From an uncultured Gemmatimonadota bacterium (lineage in GTDB: Bacteria > Gemmatimonadota > CAZMKB01 > CAZNLH01): 42,515 nt of DNA. Under the pieces are notes generated by a model. That model was not told where the DNA came from and made no database searches. It was given only the letters and a program-made list of their open reading frames with translations. Where the stretch lies: the NCBI GenBank assembly GCA_964442125.1, contig CAYTWO010000006.1, positions 1 through 42,515 on the forward strand, in the 5' to 3' direction. The translations under genes were made by a program, and so were the position numbers. Shown here piece after piece: positions 2,589 through 42,515 of this stretch. Positions within the stretch are counted from its first letter, which is position 1. Each line of letters starts with the position of its first letter.

Positions 2589-2589
2589 T

Positions 2590-3465
2590 TTACCAGTCCT
2601 TCTCCACTCGGACCCTTCCTCCTGGTTTTTCCCTGAGCTTTTTTTGAACCTCTCTCTCGTCTTCCCTCAGCGCCTGCAGGATCCTTTCCGCCTCTGACCG
2701 GGATATCCGCTCATCTTCAGGTTCAACAGGAGGACCTTCATCGGTACCCTGTTCGCTCTCATCCTTCTCACCCTGACCCGAAGACCCACCCTCCTCTTCA
2801 CTACCCTGATCACCCTCATCCCGGGATCTCTCCTGCTGCCCCCGCTCGTCATCTCCCTTTTCTTCGCCCTGTGACTGCTGATCCTGTCTGCTCTGCTGAT
2901 CTTCCATCTCTTCACGTTTTCTCATCGCATAGAGGAGGTTATATTTTGCGTCCAGGTCGTCAGGGTTTATTTTCAGTGATTCTATATACGACTGGATACT
3001 CTGATCGTACATCTGTTGTTTGAAAAGGGCGTTCCCACCGTTGAAAAAGGCCTTTGCAGCCATTTCATCGTCTTTTGAGACGGCAGCAGCCTTTTCGAAA
3101 GTACGGGTCGAGCCATCGAAATTTCCCTGCCTGTAAAGGGCGTCCCCCAGGTTGAAGCTCCCCTCCACAAGGTCTTTGTCTACCTCCAGGACCTTGCGGT
3201 ATTGCACCTCGGCTCCGGTGAAATCTTCCTCCTCATATGCCCTGTTCCCCTCCTTTATCAGGGAACGGGCAGACTGTGCCAGAAGAGAGCTCCATGGTGT
3301 GACCAACAGGGTCATCAATAGAGGTATAGCCAGGAACCTCATTCCTGAGGATTTATCGCGCATGCCCTTTGTCCTGATTTTACCCGGAACCTCGATAATA
3401 GTCTCCAACATGCCGCCCCCGTTTATTTCCTGTACACGATCCGTTTCTATTCCGTCTTCAGCCAC
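2590..3465 (-). CDS. batC: BatC-like TPR protein with acidic C-terminal tail
   Basis: TPR-like repeats (GNRAYEEEDFTGAEVQYRKVL, GDALYRQGNFDGSTRTFEKA, GNALFKQQMYDQSIQSYIESL) followed by a D/E/Q-rich tail. The true start may be an internal Met (MRFLAIPLLMTLL signal, near 3342). Confidence 0.7.
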   Translation of the reverse strand: MAEDGIETDRVQEINGGGMLETIIEVPGKIRTKGMRDKSSGMRFLAIPLLMTLLVTPWSSLLAQSARSLIKEGNRAYEEEDFTGAEVQYRKVLEVDKDLVEGSFNLGDALYRQGNFDGSTRTFEKAAAVSKDDEMAAKAFFNGGNALFKQQMYDQSIQSYIESLKINPDDLDAKYNLLYAMRKREEMEDQQSRQDQQSQGEEKGDDERGQQERSRDEGDQGSEEEGGSSGQGEKDESEQGTDEGPPVEPEDERISRSEAERILQALREDEREVQKKLREKPGGRVRVEKDW

Positions 3466-4487
3466 TTTTCAATCCACATAATTCGCCTCTCGGAAATCAG
3501 GAGCTCAACAAGGAGGAGAAGCAGACCGGCTGCAACGAAATATTGAAAGCGGCTTTCGTAGTCAGTAAACTGCTTCGTGCCGAACTCACGTTTCTCGAGC
3601 ACATTGATATCTTCGTAGATCTCGTTTAACTCATCCTGGGTGGTCGTTCCCTGAAAATACTTCCCCTTACCGTATGAGACCATCTTTTCCAGAGATAGAC
3701 GATCGAGCCGACTCATGACAACTTCACCCTTTCTATCTCTCTTGAAATCCACGCGTTGGCCCCTTGCGTCATAGATCGGTATAGGAGCCCCAGCTGATGA
3801 CCCCATTCCAATCACGTAAATAATTATGCCCTTACCGCTTGCCTCCTCGGCCGTCTCGAATATTTCACCTTCTGTGTTCTCGCCATCGGTAATAATGATG
3901 AGCACCTTGGTTGTCGACTCCTCGAAATCAAATGATTTCTCTGCCTGCTCAATGGCTCTCCCGATCGCTGTTCCCTGGACGGGAACGATATCCGTATCGA
4001 CAGCATCTATAAATAGTTCAGCAGCCGCGTAGTCTGTCGTAAGGGGGAACTGGGTGTACGCTTCACCCGCAAAAATGATCAATCCGATCCGGTCACCGGA
4101 AAAACGCTTGATAAGGTTCCGGATCTCCAGTCTGGCCTTTTCAAGCCTGTTTGGCCTGATATCCTCGGCCTTCATGCTGTTAGAAACATCGAGCGCGATG
4201 AAGATATCTACCCCCTCCAGCTTGACCTCTTCCAGCCTTGTTCCGATCTGGGGATTGGCCATGCCGATAAGGAGAATAACCATGCCTGCGATTAGCAGCA
4301 CAAACTTCCATAATGGTTTTGACCTGCTGGCCGTCCGGGAAAGTCGCCCGAGGAGATCCGGGTTCCCCAATCGTTTCACGGCACGCTTCTCCAACCTCCG
4401 GAAAAGCAGGTAGAAGACCACGAGAAGAGGCAGAGACATCAAGGCGTAGAGATATTCCGGATGAGCGAAACGCATCATCTCCGTCAT
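3447..4487 (-). CDS. batB: VWA domain protein, BatB-like
   Basis: N-terminal TM segments. VWA MIDAS motif (IFIALDVSNSM) and LIIITDGENT. Confidence 0.85.
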   Translation of the reverse strand: MTEMMRFAHPEYLYALMSLPLLVVFYLLFRRLEKRAVKRLGNPDLLGRLSRTASRSKPLWKFVLLIAGMVILLIGMANPQIGTRLEEVKLEGVDIFIALDVSNSMKAEDIRPNRLEKARLEIRNLIKRFSGDRIGLIIFAGEAYTQFPLTTDYAAAELFIDAVDTDIVPVQGTAIGRAIEQAEKSFDFEESTTKVLIIITDGENTEGEIFETAEEASGKGIIIYVIGMGSSAGAPIPIYDARGQRVDFKRDRKGEVVMSRLDRLSLEKMVSYGKGKYFQGTTTQDELNEIYEDINVLEKREFGTKQFTDYESRFQYFVAAGLLLLLVELLISERRIMWIEKWLKTE

Positions 4488-4521
4488 CGCAGAGGACCTC
4501 TCTCAGAAATGAATATCAGGT

Positions 4522-5520
4522 TCATGGTATTTTCCTGAACAACGTATTCGACAATCCAAACTCCAGCACCACGAGGAAGAGGGCAAGTCCGATCCAGCCA
4601 TAGAAAAGCTCCGCGTATTTCCTGTAGACACGTACCTCCATCTCCGTCTTCTCCAGCTCGTCGATCTCGGCATAAATGGCTTCAAGCTTCCTGTTATCGG
4701 TCGCCCGGTAGAACCTGCCTCTCGTCATTGCGGCTACTTTTTTGAGCGTCTCTTCATCTACCTCCACCGGGACGTTCTGATACCGGGTACCAAAGGGGGT
4801 TTGTACCGGATACGGAGCCGTTCCCATCGTTCCCACCCCCACCGTGTAGATCTTTATGCCGTAATTCCGTGCAATCTGTGTGGCGGTAAGCGGATCTATC
4901 TCACCGCGGTTGTTGACACCATCTGTAAGCAGGATCATCACCTTACTTTCAGCCTGGCTATCCTTGAGCCGGTTCACCCCGTTGGCGATGGCCATTCCTA
5001 TCGCGGTACCATCCTCGAGCAGGCCGCTTTTTACCCCGCTCAGCAACTCTTTAAGTACGCGGTAATCCATGGTCAGGGGGCACTGAGTGAAACTTTCTCC
5101 CGCAAAGACAACGAGCCCGATCCGATCGCTGATCCTCCCGTCGACGAATGACGCCGCTACAGATTTGGCCGCACCGATCCGATTGGGCTTGAAATCCTCG
5201 GCAAGCATGCTTCCGGATACGTCGAGAAGGAGCACGATATCTATCCCCTCTGTCGTGATCTCTTCGTCAATCGATACAGACTGTGGTCTGGCCAGGGCGA
5301 TTACGAGCACGCAAAGGGCAACCATGCGAAGTGAAAAGGTGAAATGACGGCCGCGCTCACGCCAGGTCTTCCTGATGTGCTGGAAAGGGGCAAGTGTGGG
5401 ATATCGATATTCACTCGTCCCCCTGTCATGACGCCATATATACCGGAATACGAGTACCGGGACGATCAGGAGGAGATAGAGAAACTCGGGATTCGCAAAG
5501 GTCACGTTATTCTGAAACAT
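4522..5520 (-). CDS. batA: VWA domain protein, BatA-like
   Basis: N-terminal FANPEFLYLLLIVPVLV. VWA MIDAS motif (IVLLLDVSGSM), MILLTDGVNN, and a C-terminal TM segment. Confidence 0.85.
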   Translation of the reverse strand: MFQNNVTFANPEFLYLLLIVPVLVFRYIWRHDRGTSEYRYPTLAPFQHIRKTWRERGRHFTFSLRMVALCVLVIALARPQSVSIDEEITTEGIDIVLLLDVSGSMLAEDFKPNRIGAAKSVAASFVDGRISDRIGLVVFAGESFTQCPLTMDYRVLKELLSGVKSGLLEDGTAIGMAIANGVNRLKDSQAESKVMILLTDGVNNRGEIDPLTATQIARNYGIKIYTVGVGTMGTAPYPVQTPFGTRYQNVPVEVDEETLKKVAAMTRGRFYRATDNRKLEAIYAEIDELEKTEMEVRVYRKYAELFYGWIGLALFLVVLEFGLSNTLFRKIP

Positions 5521-6517
5521 TTACCCTCACCTCCTGATCTTCCTGATCCGCCCGTTCATCTGCGACCTCGGCCGTATTTTCAACAACCGAAAATGCCAGC
5601 CTCAAAGTATCGGTGTTCTCATCGGGCAAGGGCTTGTATCTGGCGAATTTAACCAGGTCTGCCAGATTAAGCATCGATTCGAGATCACTTCTCGTCCCCG
5701 AAGGCATATCTATCGATTCTATATCATCCAGGATTTCATCTGTGGTCAGTTCCAGCGCTTGTATCCCGTACCGGCCATCGAGATATCCGCGAATGACCTC
5801 CGTGACCTCTGAATGGTAAGGCTTGATAAGTCCCTGTTGCCACAAACGTTTCTCCTCTATGATGTCCAACCTCTCTTTCGCGACGATATGAGGAGGTCTT
5901 GTCTCGATCACTTCTACAGGGGTTCGTTTTCTCCTCCCCCGCACTTTCAGGTACCTGAAGAGCAACCATGCAGCGACAATTATCGCGATGACAATGCCGA
6001 CCGGTGTCACCATTTCCTTCCAGGTCAATGCGAGACTCACCGGCTGCTTGATATCCTTGATATCGCGCGTGGTATCGACAGGGATAGAATGGATCACCAG
6101 GTCGATTGGAGAGGTCTCTATCTCCTTAAGAGTGGAGTCGCCCGGGAGGGAGTAAATAAACCTGAAGGGGGGTACGGTTACCTGACCGGTATCATAGGCA
6201 GCTATCCTGAAACCCGCTACCGATTCCTCTGTCGACAACCTGTGAACGGGATCCCTCTTGAGGACCAGTAGAGGACCGAGTGTGTCCCCTGTCAAAGACG
6301 TAAACGATGTCCCCTCCGGATGCTCGAGCCGCACCTCCACGTCGATCCAGTCACCTATCAGGTAGGCCGATGTATCGATCGATGCCTTGGCGGTAACGGG
6401 TCCTGACAAGCAGGAGACATCGGTTGAGTGTACCAGCAGAACCAGCAGGCCAAGCGGGCCGATGCGAACAAGAAATATTTTCAGGATTCGACTGATCTTG
6501 TCGGTAATGGCAACCAT
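5507..6517 (-). CDS. Bat-operon membrane protein of unknown function
   Basis: 336 aa ORF with an N-terminal hydrophobic segment and a central TM (VGIVIAIIVAAWLLF). It lies between the DUF58 and batA genes. No motif was recognised. Confidence 0.45.
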   Translation of the reverse strand: MVAITDKISRILKIFLVRIGPLGLLVLLVHSTDVSCLSGPVTAKASIDTSAYLIGDWIDVEVRLEHPEGTSFTSLTGDTLGPLLVLKRDPVHRLSTEESVAGFRIAAYDTGQVTVPPFRFIYSLPGDSTLKEIETSPIDLVIHSIPVDTTRDIKDIKQPVSLALTWKEMVTPVGIVIAIIVAAWLLFRYLKVRGRRKRTPVEVIETRPPHIVAKERLDIIEEKRLWQQGLIKPYHSEVTEVIRGYLDGRYGIQALELTTDEILDDIESIDMPSGTRSDLESMLNLADLVKFARYKPLPDENTDTLRLAFSVVENTAEVADERADQEDQEVRVNVSE

Positions 6518-6527
6518 ACCTTAATTC

Positions 6528-7406
6528 TCACCCAAGCCGGCGCTCTCGAAGACGGAAAAAATCTATGATCGGCTTGATATAGGGCCTGTCAACCGGGATG
6601 GTGATGTTGTCGATCCGGTTCCGGACCAGCAGCTTCCGGTATTTCCTGCGGTGTTCATTCCAGAATTCCCGGAAACTCTCCCTCACGCTTTCACTGCAGG
6701 TGTCGACCCACCGCTCTTCACTGCTCTCCGCATCGCGCAGTTTGACCAGACCCACTTCCGGCAGTTCCTCCTCCCTGGGATCGATAACCTCGACCGCAAT
6801 CAGGTCATGTTTACGGCTCAGGGTTCCGATAATCTTGTCATATCCCCAGTCCACGAAATCTGATACGAGGAATGCGATACATCTTTTGTTTATGACGTGA
6901 TTGAAGTATTCGAGCGCACCACGGATATCCGTTCCCACTCCTTCCGGCTCGAAGGAGACCAGCTCCCTGATTATGCGGAGGATATGCGCTCTTCCTTTTT
7001 TTGGCGGGACGAATTTTTCGATCCGGTCGGTGAAGAGGATCAATCCAACCTTGTCGTTGTTCTTGATCGCCGAGAACGCCAGCACAGCGCATATCTCGGT
7101 CGCTATTTCGTTCTTGAACTGTCGAACGGTACCGAATTCTCCGGAACGGCTGTAATCGACGATGAGCATAACGGTCAGTTCACGTTCCTCTTCGAAGACC
7201 TTCAGGTAGGGCTGGTCGAACCTCGCCGAAACCTTCCAGTCGATGTTTCTGACATCATCCCCGTACTGGTACTCCCGTACCTCCGAAAAATCGATCCCCA
7301 TCCCCTTGAAGACACTGTGGTACTCACCGGAAAAGACCTGATTTACGAGCCCCCGGGTCTTGAGTTCCACCATCCGGACCTTTTTCAGTATTTCACGTGT
7401 GTCCAT
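6528..7406 (-). CDS. DUF58 domain protein (MoxR-associated)
   Basis: Typical DUF58 N-terminus (VFSGEYHSVFKGMGIDFSEVREYQYGDDVRNIDWKVSAR). It lies immediately downstream of the moxR-type ATPase. Confidence 0.85.
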   Translation of the reverse strand: MDTREILKKVRMVELKTRGLVNQVFSGEYHSVFKGMGIDFSEVREYQYGDDVRNIDWKVSARFDQPYLKVFEEERELTVMLIVDYSRSGEFGTVRQFKNEIATEICAVLAFSAIKNNDKVGLILFTDRIEKFVPPKKGRAHILRIIRELVSFEPEGVGTDIRGALEYFNHVINKRCIAFLVSDFVDWGYDKIIGTLSRKHDLIAVEVIDPREEELPEVGLVKLRDAESSEERWVDTCSESVRESFREFWNEHRRKYRKLLVRNRIDNITIPVDRPYIKPIIDFFRLRERRLG

Positions 7407-7408
7407 TT

Positions 7409-8398
7409 TTAAGGGACTTCGATCTTGTTCAGGATATCGAGGACGAGCTGTTCAGGCGTCACCTCTTCGGCCTCCGCTTCATATGTCAAAGCTACGCGAT
7501 GCCTCAAGACATCCATGCATATTGCCCGGACGTCCTCCGGAATCACGTACCCCCGACGTTTGATGAACGCGAAGGCCTTTGCACCAAGCGCCAGATTGAT
7601 CGACGCGCGCGGTGAGGCGCCGTATTTGATCAGTTGTTTTTGGTCAGGGAGGCCGTACTTCGCCGGTTCTCTGGTGGCGAATACGATGTCGAGGATATAG
7701 CGCTCGATCTTTTCATCCATGTATATCTCCTGGACGACTTCCCGAGCCCGTATAATATCATCGGGTGACGCGACACGATTTGGCGGATCGGGCACCCCGC
7801 CAACGTTCCGGCGGAGTATCTCGAGCTCTTCTTCCTTGCTCGGATAATCGATCTTGACCTTCAGCATGAACCGGTCGATCTGAGCCTCCGGGAGCGGATA
7901 GGTCCCTTCCTGCTCGATCGGATTCTGCGTGGCCAGGACAAGAAACGGATCGGGGAGCAGGTAAGATTCCTCCCCGATCGTCACCTGACGTTCCTGCATA
8001 GACTCCAGGAGGGCGCTCTGCACCTTTGCCGGGGATCGGTTGATCTCATCTGCCAGGATGAAGTTGGCAAAGATCGGCCCTTTCCTGGTCTGGAATGAAC
8101 CGTCCCTGTGATTGTAGATCATCGTTCCGATCAGATCTGCGGGCAGAAGGTCGGGTGTGAACTGGATGCGCTGGAATTTCGCCCGGAATGTCGCGGCAAG
8201 CGAGTGAACGGCAAGTGTCTTTGCCAGTCCCGGGACTCCTTCCAGAAGAATATGCCCATTGGCCAGGAGACCAACCAGGAGCCGCTCGACCATCTCCTTC
8301 TGACCAACAATGACCTTCCCCATCTCCAGAAGGATGGCATCGACAAACGCGCTCTCTTTCTCGATCTTTTTGTTGATTTCTTGAATGTCCGTAGCCAT
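7409..8398 (-). CDS. moxR: MoxR-family AAA+ ATPase
   Basis: Walker A LLEGVPGLAKT and Walker B ILADEINR. Also VLATQNPIEQEGTYPLPEAQIDRF. Confidence 0.9.
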   Translation of the reverse strand: MATDIQEINKKIEKESAFVDAILLEMGKVIVGQKEMVERLLVGLLANGHILLEGVPGLAKTLAVHSLAATFRAKFQRIQFTPDLLPADLIGTMIYNHRDGSFQTRKGPIFANFILADEINRSPAKVQSALLESMQERQVTIGEESYLLPDPFLVLATQNPIEQEGTYPLPEAQIDRFMLKVKIDYPSKEEELEILRRNVGGVPDPPNRVASPDDIIRAREVVQEIYMDEKIERYILDIVFATREPAKYGLPDQKQLIKYGASPRASINLALGAKAFAFIKRRGYVIPEDVRAICMDVLRHRVALTYEAEAEEVTPEQLVLDILNKIEVP

Positions 8399-33516: not shown

Positions 33517-35430
33517 TCATTTTCTACTCCTTACTTCTTCCATCATATCCTTGATCAACTTTTCGACCTGCCGTGGACCCATATCCCCCTTCCCCTTCCT
33601 TCTCACCGACACGGTATCTCCTTCCACCTCTCTCGCACCAACGATCAGCATATATGGAATTTTCTGTAATTCGGCCTCTCTTATCTTGAGCCCGATTTTT
33701 TCACTCCGGTCATCTACTTCCACACGAAAATCGTTCTCCTTCAACTTTTCGAGAACCGCCCTTGCATACTCTCTCTGATCGTCTGTGACGGGAATGACCT
33801 TGACCTGCACAGGGCTGAGCCACAATGGAAAATCTCCCCCGTAGTGTTCGATCAAAACCCCGAAAAATCTCTCGAGGGAACCCAAGAGAGCACGATGGAT
33901 CATGATTGGACGATGAGACCCTCCGTCAGAGCCTATGTAACGAATATCGAACTTTTCAGGAAGATTGTAGTCGACCTGTATGGTGGTGCACTGCCAGACA
34001 CGCCGAAGTGCATCGCGGATCTTGATATCGATCTTCGGGCCGTAAAAGACCCCCTCTCCGGGATCGATTTCGTAATCCAGACCGCTGCTTACCAGAGAAT
34101 CCTTCAAGGCTCCGGTCGCCATATCCCAGTTCTCTTCGGTACCAACATATTTTTCCGGTCTCGTGCTCAGATATACCTCATACTCGTCGAAGCCAAACTC
34201 CCGCAGGAAGAAGAGGGTAAAATCGATGAGTCCTTCGATCTCTTCACGAAGTTGATCCGGCCGACAGAATATGTGTGCGTCGTCCTGTGTGAAGCCTCTA
34301 ACACGCTTCATCCCATGAAGGACCCCGGATCTCTCGAACCTGTAGACGGTACCCAACTCCGCCCATCGCAGGGGGAGATCCCGATAACTCTTCATACCGT
34401 CCTTGAAGATGAGAATATGGAAAGGGCAATTCATCGGCTTGATCAGATAATCCCCCTCCTCGAACTCCATTGGCGGATACATGTTCTCCCTGTAGAAATC
34501 AAGGTGCCCGCTCTTCTGCCAGAGAAGACTCCTGGCTACATGAGGGCTGTAGACCAGATCATATCCTCGACGGTAATGGGCTTCTTTCCAGAAATTCTCG
34601 ATGATATTTCTGATAACCGAACCCTTCGGGTGCCAGAAAACCAGACCTGGTCCGGCTTCATCATGAATACTGAAGAGGTCGAGCTGCTTACCGAGGACCC
34701 GGTGGTCCCTCTTTTTTATATCTTCCAACCTGCTCAGATGGTCGTCCAGTTCTTCCTGCACGAAAAAAGAGGTCCCGTAGATACGCTGGAGCATCGGGTT
34801 TTTCTCGTCCCCACGCCAGTAAGCGCCTGCAATAGACGTGAGTTTATATGCACTGATCCGTCCAGTAGAAGGGAGATGAGGTCCTTCGCACAGGTCGATG
34901 AAATCCCCGCACCGGTATATGGAAATGGCCTCACCCTCCGGGATCTCCTTGATCAGTTCCACTTTATAGTTCTCGCCTCTATCCCGGAAAAATTCTATTG
35001 CCTTTTCTCTTTCCCACTCTTCTCGATCGAATCGATAGTCCTGTGATATAATCTCCGCCATCTTCCCCTCGATCGATTCGAGGTCATCAGGGTTAAATGG
35101 TTGCGGTGAGTCGAAGTCATAGTAGAAGCCATCCTCGATCGGAGGACCTATCGTCACCTTTGTGCCGGGAAAAAGGGTCGTTACGGCATAAGCCATGATA
35201 TGAGAGGTGCTGTGCCGTAGAACGTCGAGAGCATCAATATCCTCCGAAGTAATTATCTTAACGTCACAATCCTTGAGCAGAGGACTGCTCAGGTCAACCA
35301 TTCTCTGATCTACCATCGCAACCAATGCGTCTTTTGCCAGTCGTGGGCCAATGTTACCGGCCATTTCCGCCACCGTAGTCCCTCTGGCGATTTCCATAGC
35401 AGAACCATTCGGCAGTTTTACTTTTATCAT
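33517..35430 (-). CDS. thrS: threonine--tRNA ligase
   Basis: MIKVKLPNGS TGS N-terminus and HSTSHIMA editing motif. Class II motifs FRDRGE..., RGFTQDDAHIF and GPKIDI. Anticodon domain present. ATG 35430 preferred; the ORF-track start is 35502. Confidence 0.95.
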   Translation of the reverse strand: MIKVKLPNGSAMEIARGTTVAEMAGNIGPRLAKDALVAMVDQRMVDLSSPLLKDCDVKIITSEDIDALDVLRHSTSHIMAYAVTTLFPGTKVTIGPPIEDGFYYDFDSPQPFNPDDLESIEGKMAEIISQDYRFDREEWEREKAIEFFRDRGENYKVELIKEIPEGEAISIYRCGDFIDLCEGPHLPSTGRISAYKLTSIAGAYWRGDEKNPMLQRIYGTSFFVQEELDDHLSRLEDIKKRDHRVLGKQLDLFSIHDEAGPGLVFWHPKGSVIRNIIENFWKEAHYRRGYDLVYSPHVARSLLWQKSGHLDFYRENMYPPMEFEEGDYLIKPMNCPFHILIFKDGMKSYRDLPLRWAELGTVYRFERSGVLHGMKRVRGFTQDDAHIFCRPDQLREEIEGLIDFTLFFLREFGFDEYEVYLSTRPEKYVGTEENWDMATGALKDSLVSSGLDYEIDPGEGVFYGPKIDIKIRDALRRVWQCTTIQVDYNLPEKFDIRYIGSDGGSHRPIMIHRALLGSLERFFGVLIEHYGGDFPLWLSPVQVKVIPVTDDQREYARAVLEKLKENDFRVEVDDRSEKIGLKIREAELQKIPYMLIVGAREVEGDTVSVRRKGKGDMGPRQVEKLIKDMMEEVRSRK

Positions 35431-35544
35431 CCCGTTACGTGCCTGTTTTATCATTTTTCTTCTCGATCGAAGGTCGATTAAACCTCTGTAGATCGGCTCC
35501 AAGCCCGCTCTATCGGACCGGTGAAGATCTCTTTTATCTGAAAA

Positions 35545-35573
35545 AATCTACGGTTTCCGACCAACAAAGTCAA
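35545..35573 (-). promoter_or_regulatory. candidate sigma70 promoter for thrS
   Basis: Minus strand TTGACT-17 nt-TAGATT. Confidence 0.3.
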
Positions 35574-35701
35574 CACATCGATGATTGCTGTTCTCAACGT
35601 CTGCCTATTTTCAGGGTCAGTTCATTGACATTATATGTGACTCCTTCTATTTTTTCCTTCGACCATTCTCCATCTTAAATAATATGACCGAGGTGAATAC
35701 A

Positions 35702-36508
35702 ATGAACCTATGGAAAACAACGATGCTCGCAGCCGTGACTCTTGCCCTGGGTTTCATCCTTGGAGGATCACGTGGTGAGGAACCGTATGGGGGTTCAATA
35801 GGTACAACGTTCCACGATGAGACCGAGCTCACTTTCGGCGAAGTTATCTCATCCGTTCTGAGATGGGGTGAGGAACCGAAAAAGGAAAAGTATTATGAAG
35901 GAGCGAGGGTGATCGACCTTCCAGATATGACTGCAGGCGACACAGGTGTCGAAGATGCAATCGCAAAGAGGAGGAGCGCGAGGAATTTCTCCAGGGGTTC
36001 TCTCTCGCTCCCTCAACTCTCCAGACTTCTGTACTCCTCATCGGGTATAACAGGGAAGAGTGGGAAAGATTCCGGTTTCAGAGCGGCACCTTCTGCTGGA
36101 GCGCTCTATCCGATCGAGACCTATGTCGTGGTCTTTGACGTCGACGGAATGGACCCCGGGATATACCATTATGTTCCTTCGAGGCACAAGCTGGAACTCG
36201 TCAGGGAGGGAAATTTCCATAACGATTTTATCTCGGCTGCTCTATATCAGGATATGGCCGGGAGGTGCGACCTGCTCTACGTGCTGACGGCGGTCTTCAG
36301 GAGGGTAACCTGGAAGTATGGCGATAGAGGATATCGTTATGCATATATCGAGGCAGGCGCCATATCCGAGAACATCTATCTTCAGGCGACCTCTCTCGGA
36401 CTGACTTCGGTTCTGATCGGGGCATTCTTCGATGACAAGGTATCAGAATTGATCGGAATCGATGGCAGAAAAGAAGCCCCTATTCTGCTGCACGCGGTGG
36501 GAACTTAG
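35702..36508 (+). CDS. SagB/ThcOx-type (nitroreductase superfamily) dehydrogenase with N-terminal TM/signal anchor
   Basis: RRSARNFS...LSLPQLSRLLYSSSGITG...FRAAPSAGALYPIETYVV...GIYHY.P is the SagB-type dehydrogenase signature. The N-terminus MNLWKTTMLAAVTLALGFILG is hydrophobic. Start at ATG 35702 after GAGGTG. Confidence 0.75.
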   Translation: MNLWKTTMLAAVTLALGFILGGSRGEEPYGGSIGTTFHDETELTFGEVISSVLRWGEEPKKEKYYEGARVIDLPDMTAGDTGVEDAIAKRRSARNFSRGSLSLPQLSRLLYSSSGITGKSGKDSGFRAAPSAGALYPIETYVVVFDVDGMDPGIYHYVPSRHKLELVREGNFHNDFISAALYQDMAGRCDLLYVLTAVFRRVTWKYGDRGYRYAYIEAGAISENIYLQATSLGLTSVLIGAFFDDKVSELIGIDGRKEAPILLHAVGT

Positions 36509-36514
36509 TTTAGT

Positions 36515-36715
36515 ATGAATGATGTCAGATATATTATCAGTTTCCTGTTGATCCTGTTCGTCTTTACAACAGGGATCGCCGGTTTGATCCAGGCGAAACT
36601 CGATCTTCATCACTTCCTCTACCACAGATACCTGGCATATGTTACACTTATTCTGAGTGCTCTCCACGTAGCTCTGAATTTTAAAAAACTATACCGTTAC
36701 CTGACCCGTCGTTAA
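36515..36715 (+). CDS. 66-aa two-TM, His-containing membrane protein
   Basis: Starts 6 nt after the SagB-type stop. Two hydrophobic helices (YIISFLLILFVFTTGIAGLI and YLAYVTLILSALHVALNF) carry H32, H33, H37 and H51. No family recognised. Confidence 0.45.
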   Translation: MNDVRYIISFLLILFVFTTGIAGLIQAKLDLHHFLYHRYLAYVTLILSALHVALNFKKLYRYLTRR

Positions 36716-37008
36716 TCAGGGACGACACAGAGACATTGCCAATCCTGGGAGTAATTGTTACAGCAGTCGAGCCAGCCTGGATACTGGGCGAGCCCCGGGA
36801 CTGAAGCTCCACCCCACCAGCAGATAAAAGCGGCACACAGGGGTAGATCACTGATCCAGGGGCACGGGTCGATGTTTCCGCACTGGCCAGTCTCCCAGCC
36901 GGGTAAAAAAACCATTCCGCAGTCAGAGCAGGCGTAACCGGACACATCCTTCCCACCTGACTTCTCTATACGTTTTGCGCTCCAGTTGATCGGCGTGAGA
37001 TGCTTCAT
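36712..37008 (-). CDS. Cys10/Trp7-rich small protein, paralog 1 (QhpC-like gamma-subunit / rSAM substrate candidate)
   Basis: 98 aa with an ATG start after GAGGGG. By hand alignment, 84/99 aligned positions are identical to paralog 2. All 10 Cys are conserved. Confidence 0.85.
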   Translation of the reverse strand: MKHLTPINWSAKRIEKSGGKDVSGYACSDCGMVFLPGWETGQCGNIDPCPWISDLPLCAAFICWWGGASVPGLAQYPGWLDCCNNYSQDWQCLCVVPD

Positions 37009-37170
37009 AATGAACCCCTCTTTCTGAACTTGAGTCGAGGGGTTTTATCATGAGAGGACTATTACAGGGGGTCTTTCACGAGGGGTTCACTGCGTAGTGT
37101 CACTGTTTACCAGCAGAGCTAACCATCGCTTGACAGATTTTCTATATCTCTTTAACTACATGACCCGTCA

Positions 37171-37323
37171 TCAGTCAGGGACCACGCAGAGACATTGCCA
37201 ATCCTGGGAGTAATTGTTGCAGCAGTCGAGCCGGTTCGGGTACTGGGCAACACCTTGGATCGATGCTCCACCCCAGGAGCAAATGAATGCGGTACATGCC
37301 GCTAGGTCTGCAGTCCAGGGACA
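37171..37323 (-). pseudogene. truncated, leaderless fourth copy of the Cys-rich gene (C-terminal half only)
   Basis: My translation of the minus frame ending at TGA 37173-37171 gives CPWTADLAACTAFICSWGGASIQGVAQYPNRLDCCNNYSQDWQCLCVVPD. Upstream, the frame has no ATG/GTG/TTG and no leader-like sequence before a stop at 37380-37378. Confidence 0.7.
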
Positions 37324-37373
37324 CCGCTCGTGATCTGGTCGACCTTCGAGTCCTTTGCAGGTACTCTTCCGTC

Positions 37374-37673
37374 TCAGTCAGGAACGACGCAGAGACACTG
37401 CCAATCCTGCGAGACATTGTTGCAGCAATCGAGCCAGCCAGGATACTGGGCAACTCCTGGAACCGACGTTCCGCCCCACCAGCAGATAAAAGAAGCACAC
37501 GCCGGGAGGTCTGAGGTCCAGGGACATGGATCGATGTTTCCGCACTGACCGGTCTCCCAGCCGGGTGCAAACATAGTCCCACAATCCGAGCAAGCATACC
37601 CGGACACATCGAGTTTAGATCCGGAACTTTCGATCCTCTTAGCTTTCCAGTTAAGGGGTTTGAGGTGTTTCAC
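37374..37673 (-). CDS. Cys10/Trp7-rich small protein, paralog 2
   Basis: 99 aa with a GTG start after GAAGGAGAG. Confidence 0.85.
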   Translation of the reverse strand: MKHLKPLNWKAKRIESSGSKLDVSGYACSDCGTMFAPGWETGQCGNIDPCPWTSDLPACASFICWWGGTSVPGVAQYPGWLDCCNNVSQDWQCLCVVPD

Positions 37674-37798
37674 TGTTCAACTCTCCTTCTCTATGCGTTT
37701 ATCCTTCTGTCCAGAACTCCCGGACGGATTTGATCACGATTCCCATATACCCGGCACTCACCTTCACAAAGGAGGGGATTTAGTTTACTATCGTGTCT

Positions 37799-38098
37799 CT
37801 AGTCAGGGACAACACAGAGACACTGAAAATCCTGCGAGACATTGTTGCAGCAGTCCATCCAGGCCGGATACTGGTTAATACCGGGGACCGAAGCCCCTGA
37901 CCACCAGCACGATGCCCAGTAGCAAGCGGGCAGATCAGCTGCCCAGGGACACGGGTCGATGTTCCCGCAGGCGCCTGTCTCCCAACCGGGTGCAAAACTC
38001 AATCCGCAGTCCGAGCAGGCATAACCGGACACGTCATTCTTCGAGCCCGAAGTCTCGATTCTTTTTGCCTTCCAATTGAGGGGTTTGAGGTGTTTCAA
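37799..38098 (-). CDS. Cys10/Trp7-rich small protein, paralog 3
   Basis: 99 aa with a TTG start after AAAGGAGAT, 35 nt after the propeller gene stop. 81/99 identical to paralog 2. Confidence 0.85.
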   Translation of the reverse strand: MKHLKPLNWKAKRIETSGSKNDVSGYACSDCGLSFAPGWETGACGNIDPCPWAADLPACYWASCWWSGASVPGINQYPAWMDCCNNVSQDFQCLCVVPD

Positions 38099-38133
38099 AA
38101 CAAGATCTCCTTTCCAATCTATTCACTCTTCAA

Positions 38134-39180
38134 TCATGAACCCGCGCGCGCTGCTTGGTCTTCTGTGTCCTCAACAAGATTATCCCGTACGGCAATCACG
38201 TTCAGTGGCGTCGGGACTTTGACCTCCCTGATCAGATTTCCCTGGGTGTCGACACATGTGATTTGACCCTCATCCTCTCCGGTGTCGGCCGAAAGGTAGA
38301 TCATATCCGCTTTACCGTTCAATGTGATCCACCTGTGTTTGACTCCGAGATCCGTTCTCGAGATCTCCTCCCCATTCGAATCCATGATAACCAGTTCTGT
38401 CAAGCCATTGGCGAAGATTCTCGATCCATCTGGAGAGGTTACCATGCCCTGTATCTTGACCTTTTCATCCAGGCAGGTCCTCTTCTTCTCTCCGGTATCT
38501 GGAAAATAGTGCCAGACACATGTTGGATTATTTTCGCCCTGCTCCAGAAGATAGAAGTCTGAACCACCCCCGGAAAAAGCGATATGGCGGAGGATCACCA
38601 TGCGTCCTTCCCACTGCCCGCCTTCTCCGAACCATAACTTCTCTGAACCCGCAAAATCATCTGTTGGGACCTTCATAACTTCTCTGCCAGCCATATGGGT
38701 GACGTAGATATTGTCTCCAGAAGGATCCAGGAAGATCTCGTACGTCCATGGTTCGAGGTAAAAATCTTCGAGTTGACTGTAGTCACCTCCCGACAGCTTG
38801 AGGATCTTATGGGGTCCGTTCGACATGTCCGGTCTGTCTCCAGGATGATGCAGGACATAGATCTGGTCTCTCGTTCCTTCATACCTTACCGAATCGAGAA
38901 TGCCGAGCGGAACCGTCTGAACAATCTCCATGATGGAGGTGTCCACGACGAGTAGCCCCCGTGTCGTCGCGAGAAAGAGTCTGCCATCTTCCGCCAGTTC
39001 CAGGCCATTTATCTGCGCCCCAACGGAGACCTTCTCGACGATCTCCCCCGAACCCATATCTATCACGAAGAGATCGTTCCATCCTGCGTAAACAATATCG
39101 CCTGATCCCCCGTGACGTGAACAGCCGGGAAGGAACATGATAGGAAGCAGCAAAATAAGAGCCGACTTAAATCTCCACAT
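38134..39180 (-). CDS. beta-propeller lipoprotein (YVTN-type repeats), QhpB-sized
   Basis: Lipobox MFLPGC at the N-terminus. Repeated ~40-aa blade-like units (DGRLFLATTRGLLVVD, GDNIYVTHMAG, DGSRIFANGLTELVIMD). 348 aa. Confidence 0.7.
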   Translation of the reverse strand: MWRFKSALILLLPIMFLPGCSRHGGSGDIVYAGWNDLFVIDMGSGEIVEKVSVGAQINGLELAEDGRLFLATTRGLLVVDTSIMEIVQTVPLGILDSVRYEGTRDQIYVLHHPGDRPDMSNGPHKILKLSGGDYSQLEDFYLEPWTYEIFLDPSGDNIYVTHMAGREVMKVPTDDFAGSEKLWFGEGGQWEGRMVILRHIAFSGGGSDFYLLEQGENNPTCVWHYFPDTGEKKRTCLDEKVKIQGMVTSPDGSRIFANGLTELVIMDSNGEEISRTDLGVKHRWITLNGKADMIYLSADTGEDEGQITCVDTQGNLIREVKVPTPLNVIAVRDNLVEDTEDQAARAGS

Positions 39181-39198
39181 CTCTGATCAACAACCCGA

Positions 39199-40221
39199 CT
39201 AATGGCCTACCGCGATGGTAAACGGAGACGCGTCCGGAACGAGGATCCTGTATAGAGGAGCGAGCGTTTTCGCGTTAAATATGGCCATGCTTCCGCCCGT
39301 ATCATAAACAGGATTGATCAGATAGAGTTTCTCGCCTCTATCACCGATTTCCATACCCTGGTAAGGTACATCAAGCGGTACCCAGCTGATCTCGGCTTCC
39401 TTTTCGAGATCGATGACAGACAGGAATCTGACCGCGTTCAGGTAGAGCTTTTTCCCGTCAGGGGAAAGGACCCCTCCACGCCACTTTGCTTCGTGATCCA
39501 GCGCAATCCTCCTCACGCTGTTTGTGGTCGTTTCGACAACCAGCACACCCGCCTGGTTTCCACCCTGCGCGATATAAATCTTGTTACTGTCTTTATCGCG
39601 GATCATCCGCCACAACATTCCCTGGTTCTGGTCTTTATGCTCGTACCCATAATCTCCAAGATCAAGGGTCTCGATCTGAGCACCGGACGTCAACTGAACG
39701 ATCTTCAGCTCGCTGTCGAGCAGGTCGAGGCAGTACAGGCGATCCTGCTCCGGGACGATTTCGATGTCGAACACCATCCGGTTCAGCTCGATCGTCCTCA
39801 ACAGTGTCTTACTGCTCAGGTCGTAGACCAGAAGTTTCGAGGGGAAGGCCTCAGCGGTTCCATCAGGCATCACTTTCCGGTCGTTCGTGAGGACGAACAT
39901 CCGGTTGCTTTCCTTCTCGATCTCAACCGTAAAAGCCGGCTTGTCCATCAAAAGTCCCTGGATCGTTCTCGTCTCGACATCGATGATATTGACCCCGTTG
40001 GATGCTCCGGCATAAACAGTTTTTCCGTCCGGAGAAACTGAAATGTTGTAGATCCACCTGTCGATCGGGATCTCCCCGGCTATCTTCCCGCTTTCCTCAT
40101 CGAGCACATAAAGTGTCGTGGCTCCCACGTACACTTCCGCTCCGTGAAGGTAAGTGGACTGGGCGAAGAACCCAGCGAGGGCAAGGGCAATCAACAATAT
40201 ACTGGCTATTTTCATCTTCAC
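39199..40221 (-). CDS. secreted beta-propeller protein (YVTN-type repeats), QhpB-sized
   Basis: Sec signal MKMKIASILLIALALAGFFAQS. Blade motifs VSPDGKTVYAGASNGVNIIDV, DSNKIYIAQGG and LSPDGKKLYLNA. 340 aa. Confidence 0.7.
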   Translation of the reverse strand: MKMKIASILLIALALAGFFAQSTYLHGAEVYVGATTLYVLDEESGKIAGEIPIDRWIYNISVSPDGKTVYAGASNGVNIIDVETRTIQGLLMDKPAFTVEIEKESNRMFVLTNDRKVMPDGTAEAFPSKLLVYDLSSKTLLRTIELNRMVFDIEIVPEQDRLYCLDLLDSELKIVQLTSGAQIETLDLGDYGYEHKDQNQGMLWRMIRDKDSNKIYIAQGGNQAGVLVVETTTNSVRRIALDHEAKWRGGVLSPDGKKLYLNAVRFLSVIDLEKEAEISWVPLDVPYQGMEIGDRGEKLYLINPVYDTGGSMAIFNAKTLAPLYRILVPDASPFTIAVGH

Positions 40222-40248
40222 TTTACTCCCTCCTTCTGAGTTCTTGAG

Positions 40249-40770
40249 TTATCTACTCTCTTTGTCCGATCCAACTTTGCTCAGGTCCTGCCGAGGTACA
40301 TCCGGCAACCAGTCGGGAGGAATCACGGCAATTGAAGACAGATCCCTCATGAGAACCCATCCCTCTCCCTCCCGGAAGTGTCGGTAAAACGCACCCACAA
40401 GACCTTCACCACAATCGATAGAGACCGCAGCCGTGAATACCCCGGTACGTCTATCAATGGTTCCGAGTTCTGGTCCCACCCTGGTCCCCCAGAATGCATT
40501 GACCGGCCCCACCAAGATGTCATCGCCACCACCGTCCTCCGGAATACCGTTTGGACCATTATTCCAGCCATTCGCCCTGAACCGCGCATAATATTGCGGT
40601 AAGCCAGTTCCCTGCAGCCTTGTACAAGGACCGGGAACACGGTTATTCCCAGGCGGTTCTACGATCTTGATGTAGTCAATTTCCTGGGAGCAGGCTTCGC
40701 TTGTGAACCCCATGAAAGCAATCATGTAGATTGCCAGAAACGCGATTGCCTTCCACTTGATAAATCTCAT
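40249..40770 (-). CDS. secreted 173-aa protein of unknown function
   Basis: N-terminal hydrophobic signal (AIAFLAIYMIAFMGFTSEA). No CxxCH and no motif I recognise. SD GGAGGAGGGG lies before the ATG. Confidence 0.6.
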   Translation of the reverse strand: MRFIKWKAIAFLAIYMIAFMGFTSEACSQEIDYIKIVEPPGNNRVPGPCTRLQGTGLPQYYARFRANGWNNGPNGIPEDGGGDDILVGPVNAFWGTRVGPELGTIDRRTGVFTAAVSIDCGEGLVGAFYRHFREGEGWVLMRDLSSIAVIPPDWLPDVPRQDLSKVGSDKESR

Positions 40771-40886
40771 GCCCCTCCTCCTTTCAGATAACAGCTCTGA
40801 GATGTTTGATACATCTCATTGACTCCATGCCAAGCAACCGATATACATCCTTTCCTTTGCTCGACGACAACCAACTTACTAAACGA

Positions 40887-42302
40887 TCAACAGGTGAGAT
40901 CCTCACCCGCACACATATCAAGGAATGCCGGATTCTGACGCATAAGGTCAAAATAGACATGTATACCAAACTCGTACCACTGCAGAAGGAGCTTACAGGT
41001 GAGCGCGTGAGGTTTTTTCAGGTCTCCGTTGTGGAGGTCTGAAAGGTAGTAACAACCACCGCCACAGAGATGCTTCGCCCAGCATGACCTGCAAGCCGGT
41101 TTTGAATCTACAAGGAGTGATCTTAACAGTTCCTCCCTCCTCCGGTCGTCTATCCCCTCCCTGAGGTTGCCTATCCGCAACTCCTCATTTCCTGAAAATC
41201 TGTGACAGATGTAGAAATCTCCCTCGGGCGAGGCGGCCATCAGCTTGAGCCCCGCTCCACAGGGAAGAGGTTTGGTATCACCCCGTTGAAGGAGCTTCAT
41301 CAAATTGATGATGTTGGTGAAACCGTAAACCTTCCCGGCAGAGGATTGTTCCTGAAACCGTCTGGCAAGGACCTTGAATCCATCGAGAAGCTGCCCCATC
41401 TCTCCTTCATCGAGGGCAAACTCCTCATTGACCGTATCGACAGGGGCCAGACCCACCTGTCTAAAACCGAGTCCGAGCAGGTGATCGACAACAGCGACGA
41501 CATCGATGTTGTTTTTCGTCAACGTTGCCCTGGCCGGTACCTGTCTTTCCTTCATTAATTTCGAGAGGTTGGATACCAGGAAATCGTATGAGCCTCGACC
41601 ATCAATGAATTTCCGGTGTTCATCATGTGCTTCTCTCGTACCATCTATGCTTATGGAAAGCTGGATGTTGTGTGAGTTTGAATAGCGGATTATATCTTCG
41701 GTGAGAAGTGTCCCGTTCGTTGTCAATGAAAAATCGATCTCTTTCCCGATTTCACCGGCCCTCTCCTCCCCCCTGCTGATAGCTGCCCGGACCGCCTCGA
41801 AGTTCATCAGGGGTTCCCCGCCGAAAAAGGTGATCATCACCTTATCGTCTTCCGTGCCGTCGAGAAGAAAATCAACGAGTTCCACGGCCACCTCTGGTTT
41901 CATGAGCTCTCTCTTCCCCCTGTAGCTCCCACCATCCGCGTAGCAATAACTGCAGGAGAGATTACAGGAGTGGGCGACATTCATCACAATATGTGAAACC
42001 TTCGGGAGTGGAACCTGGTTCCCGGAGCTTACATCCGCTTCAGTTCTCATCTCTTCCGAACCATTCGACACAAAACCAGCCTGTTCGAGCTCATCGATGG
42101 CGGTCTGAATCCTTGCTGCATCGAAGTCCCCTGAAAGTGTCTCGACCACACGCTCCCGTGTCGAGGGACTGTTTTTATCGAGGAACTCGAGGATTGAAAG
42201 GGATGTCGTATCGGGTTGAAAGATACCACATGTCTTGGTTGAAAACAGGATATCTTCCTGACCGTTCCTGAATCTCTTATATTTAATAGGTTTTAAGGGC
42301 AT
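40887..42302 (-). CDS. radical SAM / SPASM peptide-protein maturase (QhpD-like) with N-terminal RRE-like domain
   Basis: CNLSCSYC (CX3CX2C, codons at 41966-41943) and GGEPL. The full SPASM signature is C-x12-G-x4-C ... CRSCWAKHLCGGGC (CX2CX5CX3C) ... C. About 100 aa of winged-helix-like sequence precede the rSAM core (LSILEFLDKNSPSTRERVVETLSG...IDELEQAGFV). Confidence 0.85.
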   Translation of the reverse strand: MPLKPIKYKRFRNGQEDILFSTKTCGIFQPDTTSLSILEFLDKNSPSTRERVVETLSGDFDAARIQTAIDELEQAGFVSNGSEEMRTEADVSSGNQVPLPKVSHIVMNVAHSCNLSCSYCYADGGSYRGKRELMKPEVAVELVDFLLDGTEDDKVMITFFGGEPLMNFEAVRAAISRGEERAGEIGKEIDFSLTTNGTLLTEDIIRYSNSHNIQLSISIDGTREAHDEHRKFIDGRGSYDFLVSNLSKLMKERQVPARATLTKNNIDVVAVVDHLLGLGFRQVGLAPVDTVNEEFALDEGEMGQLLDGFKVLARRFQEQSSAGKVYGFTNIINLMKLLQRGDTKPLPCGAGLKLMAASPEGDFYICHRFSGNEELRIGNLREGIDDRRREELLRSLLVDSKPACRSCWAKHLCGGGCYYLSDLHNGDLKKPHALTCKLLLQWYEFGIHVYFDLMRQNPAFLDMCAGEDLTC

Positions 42303-42432
42303 CGAAACAAATTCTCAACGATTGGAAGCATACTCATCCACGAAAAACGCTTTCAATTGACTCTCCCGTATGACGAGCATTAAGCAAGGGGGGCTTTCAA
42401 ACAGGGGATGGCAAATATAAAAGCATTGATTG

Positions 42433-42461
42433 AGTATACTACAGATCGCGGGATTTGTCAA
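42433..42461 (-). promoter_or_regulatory. near-consensus sigma70 promoter for the rSAM operon
   Basis: Minus strand TTGACA-17 nt-TATACT. The predicted start near 42426 gives a 5' UTR of about 120 nt before ATG 42302. Confidence 0.5.
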
Positions 42462-42488
42462 TTAAAATTTTATCCTGTAAGGAGTTGT

Positions 42489-42515
42489 ATGTTTCAAACC
42501 CTTCACCGGTTTACC
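42489..42515 (+). CDS. possible start of a divergent gene (only 9 codons in window)
   Basis: AAGGAG lies 4 nt before ATG 42489 (MFQTLHRFT...). Too short to evaluate. Confidence 0.2.

Follow-up and report, generated by a model that had tools for sequence, protein, structure and literature searches.

A stretch of 42,515 nucleotides from an uncultured Gemmatimonadota bacterium (assembly GCA_964442125.1, contig CAYTWO010000006.1; hereafter the window) encodes on its reverse strand a 471-residue radical S-adenosylmethionine (SAM) enzyme with a SPASM domain. This maturase heads an operon that also encodes a secreted α′ protein, two β-propellers and three small QhpC-like γ proteins. It is probably a divergent QhpD-type enzyme that cross-links the three γ proteins by thioether bonds for a heme-less relative of quinohemoprotein amine dehydrogenase (QHNDH). 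Direct support comes from the domain layout, the cluster ligands, the fold of an N-terminal RiPP recognition element (RRE; RiPP, a peptide made on the ribosome and then modified post-translationally), homology to both QhpD and QhpC, retained leader and acceptor residues, and conserved synteny. We assign the enzyme class (radical SAM/SPASM, QhpD-type) and the pairing with the γ substrates with high confidence. Confidence in the cross-linking chemistry, argued by analogy, is moderate, and it is low for how the quinone would be made and where the electrons would go.

Domain structure and family of the maturase

The radical SAM cluster motif C113-x3-C117-x2-C120 was found exactly where a preliminary description of the sequence had placed it, at residues 113-120. 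The SPASM region contains C348-x12-G361-x4-C366 and C404-x2-C407-x5-C413-x3-C417 followed by a trailing C436, again in line with the earlier description, and so carries the full signature of two auxiliary clusters. All ten motif cysteines and Gly-361 are invariant in an alignment of 74 homologues (32-71% identity), so the motifs are not due to chance. Pfam profiles for Radical_SAM (PF04055, 67.7 bits) and Fer4_12 matched the protein, and the SPASM profile (PF13186) matched below threshold (17.6 versus 21.5 bits).

An AlphaFold model built from the homologue alignment had a predicted local distance difference test score (pLDDT) of 92 and a predicted template-modeling (TM) score of 0.90. Its best fold match was the SCIFF maturase CteB (5WGG; E = 1e-33, TM 0.73/0.77, 472 columns), which also matched at the sequence level with E = 3e-66. 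The phmmer alignment to CteB spans maturase residues 27-440 and includes the crystallographic RRE of CteB. In the model the N-terminal region has a β3-α3 arrangement (strands 2-5, 8-13 and 16-21; helices 32-44, 49-56 and 62-74) with pLDDT above 90, and is followed by a low-confidence linker at residues 81-100. The top Pfam match to residues 1-100 was PqqD, below threshold (E = 0.0068, 17.2 versus 23.4 bits). When the domain was modeled in isolation (pLDDT 83), nearly all of its fold matches were known leader-binding RREs, including TbiB1 with its leader, the CteB N terminus, lasso B1, McbB, ThcOx, TigE, MccB and TruD; TM scores were 0.53-0.69 and probabilities ~1.0, with marginal E-values, as expected for a 100-residue query. 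On these four lines of evidence the N-terminal ~80 residues form an RRE, in agreement with the RRE-like N terminus proposed in the preliminary description.

Among NCBIfam families the maturase scored best with QhpD (TIGR03906, 388.4 bits; E = 4e-116 for the family match). Lower scores were obtained with PapB (NF047865, 309 bits, cutoff 340), SCIFF maturases (TIGR03974, 294 bits, cutoff 425), nif11 maturases (239 bits, cutoff 518.7) and the anaerobic sulfatase-maturating enzymes (AnSMEs; TIGR03942, 99.7 bits, cutoff 349). On score, the AnSME, SCIFF, PapB, PqqE-type and other SPASM families were rejected for the maturase. The earlier view of the enzyme as QhpD-like rather than AnSME-like is borne out; clustering with AnSMEs, which had been named beforehand as grounds for giving it up, was not seen, and the AnSME score lies far below that for QhpD. 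The idea that the enzyme is an AnSME making formylglycine is effectively refuted. AnSMEs share the SPASM fold and form the second group of fold matches (E = 1e-20), but only ~385 columns align, with the N-terminal domain uncovered. AnSMEs have no N-terminal RRE, and a sulfatase gene was not found in the window.

A search of 5.8 billion proteins returned ~15 clusters at least 53% identical to the maturase, all metagenomic and none named. Below this group, identity falls to 41% or less, where canonical QhpD sits. Among the matches listed from species-representative contigs there was canonical QhpD alone (32-40% identity). A search of metagenome contigs with the maturase alignment revealed at least one further clade member (locus L093). 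The TIGR03906 model gave 357-386 bits with relatives in the window clade and 621-782 bits with the canonical QhpD proteins of Terriglobus, Lautropia and P. putida.

QhpC-like substrates and predicted cross-links

To our knowledge, QHNDH is among the few enzymes with a cysteine tryptophylquinone (CTQ) cofactor, and no radical SAM enzyme before QhpD had been shown to form non-α thioethers within a protein. The three γ proteins of the window are 77-82% identical to one another and matched the QHNDH γ chains 1JJU_C (E = 3e-7) and 1JMX_G in the PDB. When they were aligned with QhpC from 13 genomes, a leader motif, MKHLxPxNxKAxRxE, proved common to the window γ proteins and canonical QhpC. This conservation is consistent with the earlier suggestion that the RRE is suited to a conserved leader on the small proteins. 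Two cross-link pairs are retained, C31/E40 of γ1 corresponding to Cys7/Glu16 of QhpC and C50/D55 to Cys27/Asp33. The CTQ pair Cys37/Trp43 is kept as C59/W66 in the three window proteins and in three γ proteins of the related loci L001 and L002, and the equivalent of Cys41 is present in the window proteins as C64. The γ cores hold 10 cysteines. A search of 1.84 billion representatives with a γ profile yielded just 19 proteins at E ≤ 1e-3, including intermediate forms that retain "QVPD."

The number of γ copies is one in L001, two in L002, three in the window and five, all intact, in L090, whose maturase (P0241) belongs to the same ≥90%-identity cluster as the window enzyme. A decayed fourth copy of the direct repeat lies between γ2 and γ3; it has neither leader nor start codon and ends ...CLCVVPD-stop. 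The paralogues differ chiefly between two cysteines of the CTQ region (PACYWASC, PACASFIC and PLCAAFIC), and this variable segment may confer different specificities. The preliminary description had spoken of three downstream substrates. All three are indeed in the same operon, but they lie at its 3′ end, with three genes between them and the maturase, and are not adjacent to it.

The proposed mechanism is modeled on the biochemistry of QhpD and CteB (PMC7876137; PMC10114670); the chemistry, how many cross-links form, the formation of the quinone and of the complex, and what the final enzyme acts on are all inferred. The RRE would bind the hydrophilic ~24-residue leader (MKHLKPLNWKAKRIE...) of the three γ proteins. 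SAM cleavage at the CX3CX2C cluster would yield a 5′-deoxyadenosyl radical, which would take a methylene hydrogen from Asp C-β or Glu C-γ of the γ core. The resulting carbon radical would be captured by a Cys thiolate, which by analogy with CteB would probably sit at auxiliary cluster I, in its open site, and the electron would exit via the two SPASM clusters. The predicted links in γ1 are at least C31-E40 and C50-D55. The canonical third link would be impossible as such, because the equivalent of Asp49 is missing; either only two links would form, or C64 and the extra cysteines would be linked to other acceptors. The knotted γ protein would mature C59 and W66 into CTQ and assemble outside the cytoplasm with α′ and the β-propellers into a heme-less QHNDH relative.

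The same features bear on two other accounts of the substrates. According to the first, the maturase is a ranthipeptide/SCIFF-type enzyme and the γ proteins, present in several copies, are precursors from which secreted peptides with thioether knots are made; these would serve some non-catalytic purpose such as signaling, metal binding or antagonism and would not be subunits of a quinoprotein dehydrogenase. The families scoring next best after QhpD (PapB and SCIFF), the nearest solved structure (CteB), the tandem arrangement of one to five γ genes with a decayed remnant as in RiPP precursor arrays, the unusually Cys-rich γ cores and a linked SagB-type "peptide dehydrogenase" gene all fit such a role. 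However, the PapB and SCIFF scores are below those families' own cutoffs as well as below the QhpD score, and the γ proteins are full-length QhpC homologues that include the CTQ Cys/Trp pair and the Asp33 equivalent. They are always encoded together with a QhpA domain IV protein and QhpB-like propellers, for which a free peptide provides no rationale. No short precursor of the SCIFF or Pap type was found; the small open reading frames are QhpC homologues. We consider this account unlikely.

The second account retains a QhpD-related enzyme with a changed outcome, in which extra or different cross-links would be made through C28, C44, C84 and C95 with other Asp/Asn acceptors (D30, D48, D82 and D90), giving a differently knotted γ protein whose cofactor chemistry might differ from that of CTQ. 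It draws on the loss of Asp49 alongside conservation of these four extra cysteines in all six clade γ proteins aligned (window, L001 and L002), several extra aspartates being conserved in the same six. The window clade is also monophyletic and distinct (200/200 bootstraps), and two enzyme residues, C25 and C471, are invariant within that clade only. No finding contradicts it directly. The catalytic scaffold is fully conserved, and periplasmic disulfides, like those of the small subunit of methylamine dehydrogenase, could be all that the extra cysteines form. A changed outcome seems improbable, and thioether cross-linking of γ subunits by a QhpD-type enzyme is the reading carried forward here.

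Operon, partner proteins and related loci

As described earlier, the maturase is the first gene of the operon. A promoter-like site lies upstream of it; both hexamers are identical in L090, in which the spacer differs. The start codon lacks a Shine-Dalgarno (SD) sequence (TTGAGAATTTGTTTCG-ATG), also as described, and so does that of β2, whereas α′, β1 and γ1-3 have sites of the AAGGAG/GGAGG type. QhpD has been described as acting in a single turnover and as being co-expressed with its substrate (PMC7876137), which is at odds with reading the weak SD as a sign of catalytic amounts. An Rfam scan of positions 35000-42515 had no match at E ≤ 0.1, and thus none to a riboswitch in the 5′ untranslated region. 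A divergent gene that might start at 42489 on the forward strand (AAGGAG-N5-ATG, "MFQTLHRFT") was rejected, since L090 has AAG in place of ATG; the true upstream gene in L090 begins ~370 bp from the maturase.

The sole PDB match to α′ was QhpA (1JJU_A, residues 339-412, E = 1.3e-5). The CXXCH heme motif was not found in the α′ sequence, in which a signal peptide was read. β1 matched QhpB in the PDB (1JMX_B, E = 5e-5; 1JJU_B, E = 2e-4), and β2 is conserved in every clade locus. The complete module, maturase-α′-β-β-γ(n), was present in all thirteen clade loci inspected, L001, L002 and L085-L093 among them, down to a maturase identity of 53%.

The clade loci include two subtypes. In subtype I (the window, L090, L091 and L092) genes for a SagB-type flavoprotein and a 66-68-residue membrane protein converge on the operon, and the stop codon of the small gene overlaps that of the last γ gene by exactly 4 bp in all four. 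The SagB-like gene adjoins the γ genes in L090, L091 and L092 and is conserved together with the small gene, whose 66-residue product in the window gave only faint, unreliable Pfam matches (for example Ferric_reduct TM, E = 0.018). Possible roles for the flavoprotein and the small protein are as electron acceptor or in a cofactor oxidation step. In subtype II (L085-L089) a divergent operon encodes a protein with no Pfam match, a U32 protein (UbiU/TrhP-like), an ATP-binding cassette (ABC) exporter, a QhpE-like S8 protease (139 bits to NF049966) and a DUF362 protein with a twin-arginine translocation (Tat) signal. The U32 protein and the Pfam-less protein have four invariant cysteines each, and α′ is ~300 residues long in these loci.

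Several observations weigh against the assignment to a QhpD-type cross-linking enzyme. The TIGR03906 score is below the curated cutoff of 453 bits. In neighbor-joining trees rooted on CteB, a distance method with a single outgroup beyond whose resolution the deep branching lies, the window clade was monophyletic in 200 of 200 bootstraps and fell outside canonical QhpD; on these sequence comparisons, the maturase does not count as a canonical QhpD. The proteins nearest to the clade were, in most replicates, non-canonical ones, and the commonest sister (93/200) was an orphan group with no QhpC nearby. The homology of the β-propellers to QhpB is weak. In the γ proteins, Asp49, the third cross-link acceptor, is replaced, leaving an SGASVPG segment with no acidic residue, and there are six cysteines additional to those of QhpC; a copy number of 1-5 would also be more usual for RiPP precursors than for subunits of an enzyme. 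Finally, genes for QhpE (S8 protease), QhpF (ABC exporter), QhpG (FAD monooxygenase) and U32 were found neither in the window, over 40 kb to one side, nor in the 10 kb upstream of the operon in L090, which leaves the window operon with no nearby counterpart of these genes for processing, hydroxylation and export of the γ proteins. On the first of these points, a maturase from a genuine Desulfuromonadaceae qhpA-D-C-B operon (L045) scores 327 bits, so the TIGR03906 cutoff is conservative and a score below it leaves a QhpD function possible. QhpG was not found in any clade locus, and qhpE, qhpF and qhpG may lie elsewhere in the genome.

The sister group in the trees (P0017-P0020, 38-41% identity) consists of orphan QhpD-like maturases. 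In L003 and L004 these have no QhpC, propeller or α gene near them and are adjoined by a gene for a B12-binding radical SAM protein.

Table 1. Positions of the operon, its features and the related gene sets
Feature	Position	Strand	Remarks
Sigma-70-like promoter, TTGACA-17-TATACT	42433..42461	-	11/12 consensus; ~130 nt upstream of maturase start
QhpD-like radical SAM/SPASM maturase	40887..42302	-	471 aa; operon gene 1; TIGR03906 388 bits (cutoff 453)
N-terminal RRE, PqqD-like winged helix, residues 1-80	42063..42302	-	fold matches and AlphaFold model
Radical SAM cluster motif C113-x3-C117-x2-C120	41943..41966	-	invariant in 74 homologues
SPASM domain, seven Cys for two auxiliary [4Fe-4S] clusters	40995..41261	-	motifs match CteB SPASM residue for residue
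α′, secreted, 173 aa, QhpA domain IV homologue	40249..40770	-	PF09100 25.9 bits (cutoff 25)
β1, secreted YVTN-type β-propeller, 340 aa	39199..40221	-	TIGR03907 QH_beta top family, 46.7 bits (cutoff 223)
β2, second β-propeller, 348 aa, LPGC lipobox (lipoprotein-type signal)	38134..39180	-	generic YVTN propeller matches only
γ1, QhpC-like substrate, 99 aa, TTG start	37799..38098	-	NF037958 51.6 bits (cutoff 50); 1JJU_C E = 3e-7
γ2, QhpC-like substrate, 99 aa, GTG start	37374..37673	-	NF037958 51.7 bits; 82% identical to γ1
Decayed γ copy, C-terminal 52 codons	37171..37329	-	tblastn 75% identity to γ2/γ3 residues 47-99
γ3, QhpC-like substrate, 98 aa, ATG start	36712..37008	-	NF037958 41.5 bits, below cutoff; 77% identical to γ1
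Two-helix His-rich membrane protein, 66 aa	36515..36715	+	convergent; stop overlaps γ3 stop by 4 bp
SagB-type nitroreductase-family flavoprotein, 268 aa, N-terminal hydrophobic anchor/signal	35702..36508	+	TIGR03605 156 bits (cutoff 78); PF00881
Bat/MoxR-type operon	window 756-8398	-	
SagB-type and small membrane-protein genes	window 35702-36715; L090 16260-17273; L091 5175-6190; L092 4441-5453	+ (window)	
QhpC-like gene copies	L090 14206-16263; L002 9347-10054; L001 14200-14508		five intact in L090
DUF362 contexts	L001 4886-8145 and 14693-21171; L087 135-1226; L089 2776-3861		
U32 pair loci	L085 4265-6231; L087 3872-5972 and 11036-12673; L089 6449-8316; L045 5833-7661; L068 13843-15782; L032 10862-13007; L079 10768-12701; L095-L097; L115; L118		
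QhpD/QhpC variant with no α subunit	L095 4727-12404; L096 9941-17415; L097 2282-9587; L098; L101		
Orphan QhpD-like maturases	L003 10001-13216; L004		
Divergent block upstream of operon	L090 4879-9632; L002 1473-4753		

Other genes accompany the module in some of the loci. The Tat-signal DUF362 protein stands beside it in three differing contexts (L001, L087 and L089; 58-72% identity), and the genes flanking the module in L001 encode multiheme cytochromes c and a molybdopterin/NrfD-type oxidoreductase, all of them possible electron partners for a heme-less dehydrogenase. In the closest relatives, L090 and L002, the region directly upstream of the operon, just past the end of the window, holds a divergent block that encodes an uncharacterized protein of 268-287 residues, two BrxC/BrxD-like ATPases and a DEAD/Cas3-like helicase, and looks like a defense-type island.

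The remainder of the window is housekeeping in character (thrS-infC-rplT-pheST, rny, folD, xseA, dxs, a Bat/MoxR operon and others). The Bat/MoxR-type operon is complete, with genes for a MoxR AAA+ ATPase, a DUF58 protein, an unknown protein, two BatA/vWA proteins, a TPR protein and BatD. Bat operons take their name from Bacteroides aerotolerance, and the presence of one suggests an oxygen-sensitive lifestyle. No named sequence is more than 58% identical to the DXS protein of the window; the closest come from Calditrichaeota, KSB1, TA06 and Zixibacteria, and FCB-group candidate phyla are the nearest relatives of the host to bear a name. DNA nearly identical to the window was found in marine and microbial-mat metagenomes.

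Relation to known systems and tryptophylquinone biogenesis

The window enzyme resembles the QhpD proteins of Paracoccus denitrificans and Pseudomonas putida in length (~470 residues) and in its combination of RRE, radical SAM core and seven-Cys SPASM domain. It too is encoded with a QhpA-related protein and with propellers of which β1 is weakly QhpB-like, and its substrate is a QhpC homologue in which the leader motif persists, as do two of three Cys-Asp/Glu pairs. The window enzyme differs in forming a separate clade, 32-40% identical to canonical QhpD, in a gene order of D-α′-β-β-γ(n) rather than A-D-C-B, and in having three substrates and a pseudogene in place of a single substrate. With CteB and PapB it shares the RRE and a seven-Cys SPASM domain with an open site on auxiliary cluster I and, by analogy, would share a chemistry class, radical formation of a Cys-S-C thioether. 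The substrate of CteB is a short six-Cys peptide, whereas that of the window enzyme would be a protein subunit of ~75 residues.

The canonical cluster is qhpABCDEFGR (PMC7876137). A γ protein with the CTQ Cys/Trp pair and the Asp33 equivalent, a radical SAM maturase and a β-propeller partner are all present in the window, and a QhpE-like protease and ABC exporter are retained in the subtype II relatives. Canonical QhpA is a diheme protein of ~60 kDa with two CXXCH motifs (open reading frames of 520-570 residues), whereas α′ corresponds to its domain IV and has no heme c. The window has two propellers, one of them with a lipoprotein-type signal. In place of QhpG, which is missing, there is a U32 pair in relatives and the SagB-like flavoprotein with the small membrane protein in the window lineage. 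Canonical hosts are aerobic proteobacteria, whereas the window host is an uncultured marine or microbial-mat bacterium. The QHNDH-system variant to which the maturase belongs, with neither heme nor QhpG, is undescribed.

The U32 gene and its partner were also found within canonical diheme qhp clusters (L032, L051, L079, L115, L118 and, with the order A-D-C-B-partner-U32-ABC, the Desulfuromonadaceae locus L045), whose hosts are likely anaerobes or denitrifiers. A further heme-less QhpD/QhpC variant, with no α subunit at all, has the order D-C-B-partner-U32-ABC-S8 (L095-L097; L098 and L101 are also of this variant). Its γ proteins stand midway between those of the window and canonical QhpC: they have "DCC," "DPCPW" and "LCTVPD," and "QVPD" is kept. 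Across ~170 loci, many of them so short that finding neither QhpG nor U32 is uninformative there, a QhpG-like flavin adenine dinucleotide protein occurs in 47 and U32 in 15, with both in the Aromatoleum locus L068 only. This near-exclusive pattern is similar to that of UbiU/V, which replace the flavin monooxygenases UbiH/F/I under anoxia. As a lead from the related loci rather than a property of the window, it suggests by analogy that the U32 pair may be an O2-independent substitute for the dihydroxylation of Trp by QhpG. The comparison with UbiU/UbiV, TrhP and RlhA likewise concerns these loci and not the window.

The U32 protein is distant from UbiU (57 bits versus a cutoff of 440), and its partner had no Pfam, NCBIfam or PDB match, with an hhalign probability of 43% to U32. 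U32 proteins have been proposed as prephenate-dependent, O2-independent hydroxylases, and most subfamilies are uncharacterized (PMC10990095). In the literature searched, U32 was not mentioned together with tryptophylquinone or QHNDH, nor was any U32 enzyme reported to hydroxylate a Trp residue of a protein. All described tryptophylquinone biogenesis needs O2 or heme peroxide chemistry, through QhpG with QhpA, MauG, or LodB/GoxB (PMC7876137; PMC11951088), and a 2025 review gives QhpG/QhpA, LodB and GoxB as the only routes to CTQ (PMC11951088).

We tentatively propose, as a possibility that we regard as doubtful, that the operon is one form of an undescribed O2-independent route for making and using tryptophylquinone in a heme-less, QhpC-based dehydrogenase. 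If so, the hosts would be uncultured sediment and mat bacteria, presumed anaerobic, in which Trp would be oxygenated without QhpG. The relatives would use the U32 pair as an Fe-S hydroxylase of the UbiU/V-like, prephenate-dependent type, and in the window lineage this role would fall to genes sited elsewhere or to the linked SagB-like flavoprotein. The 66-residue membrane protein and the flavoprotein would then replace the missing diheme domain as electron acceptor.

The QhpC/QhpD core exists in several undescribed architectures in uncultured marine and mat lineages, with no heme subunit, no QhpG and multiple, Cys-richer γ proteins. With one acceptor lost and six cysteines gained, the window system is a natural test of the flexibility of QhpD-type cross-linking. 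A single weakly translated maturase for three to five substrate genes would conflict with strict single turnover, a point worth testing, and in the U32-containing relatives there is a candidate, open to direct test, for an enzyme that hydroxylates a protein tryptophan independently of O2.

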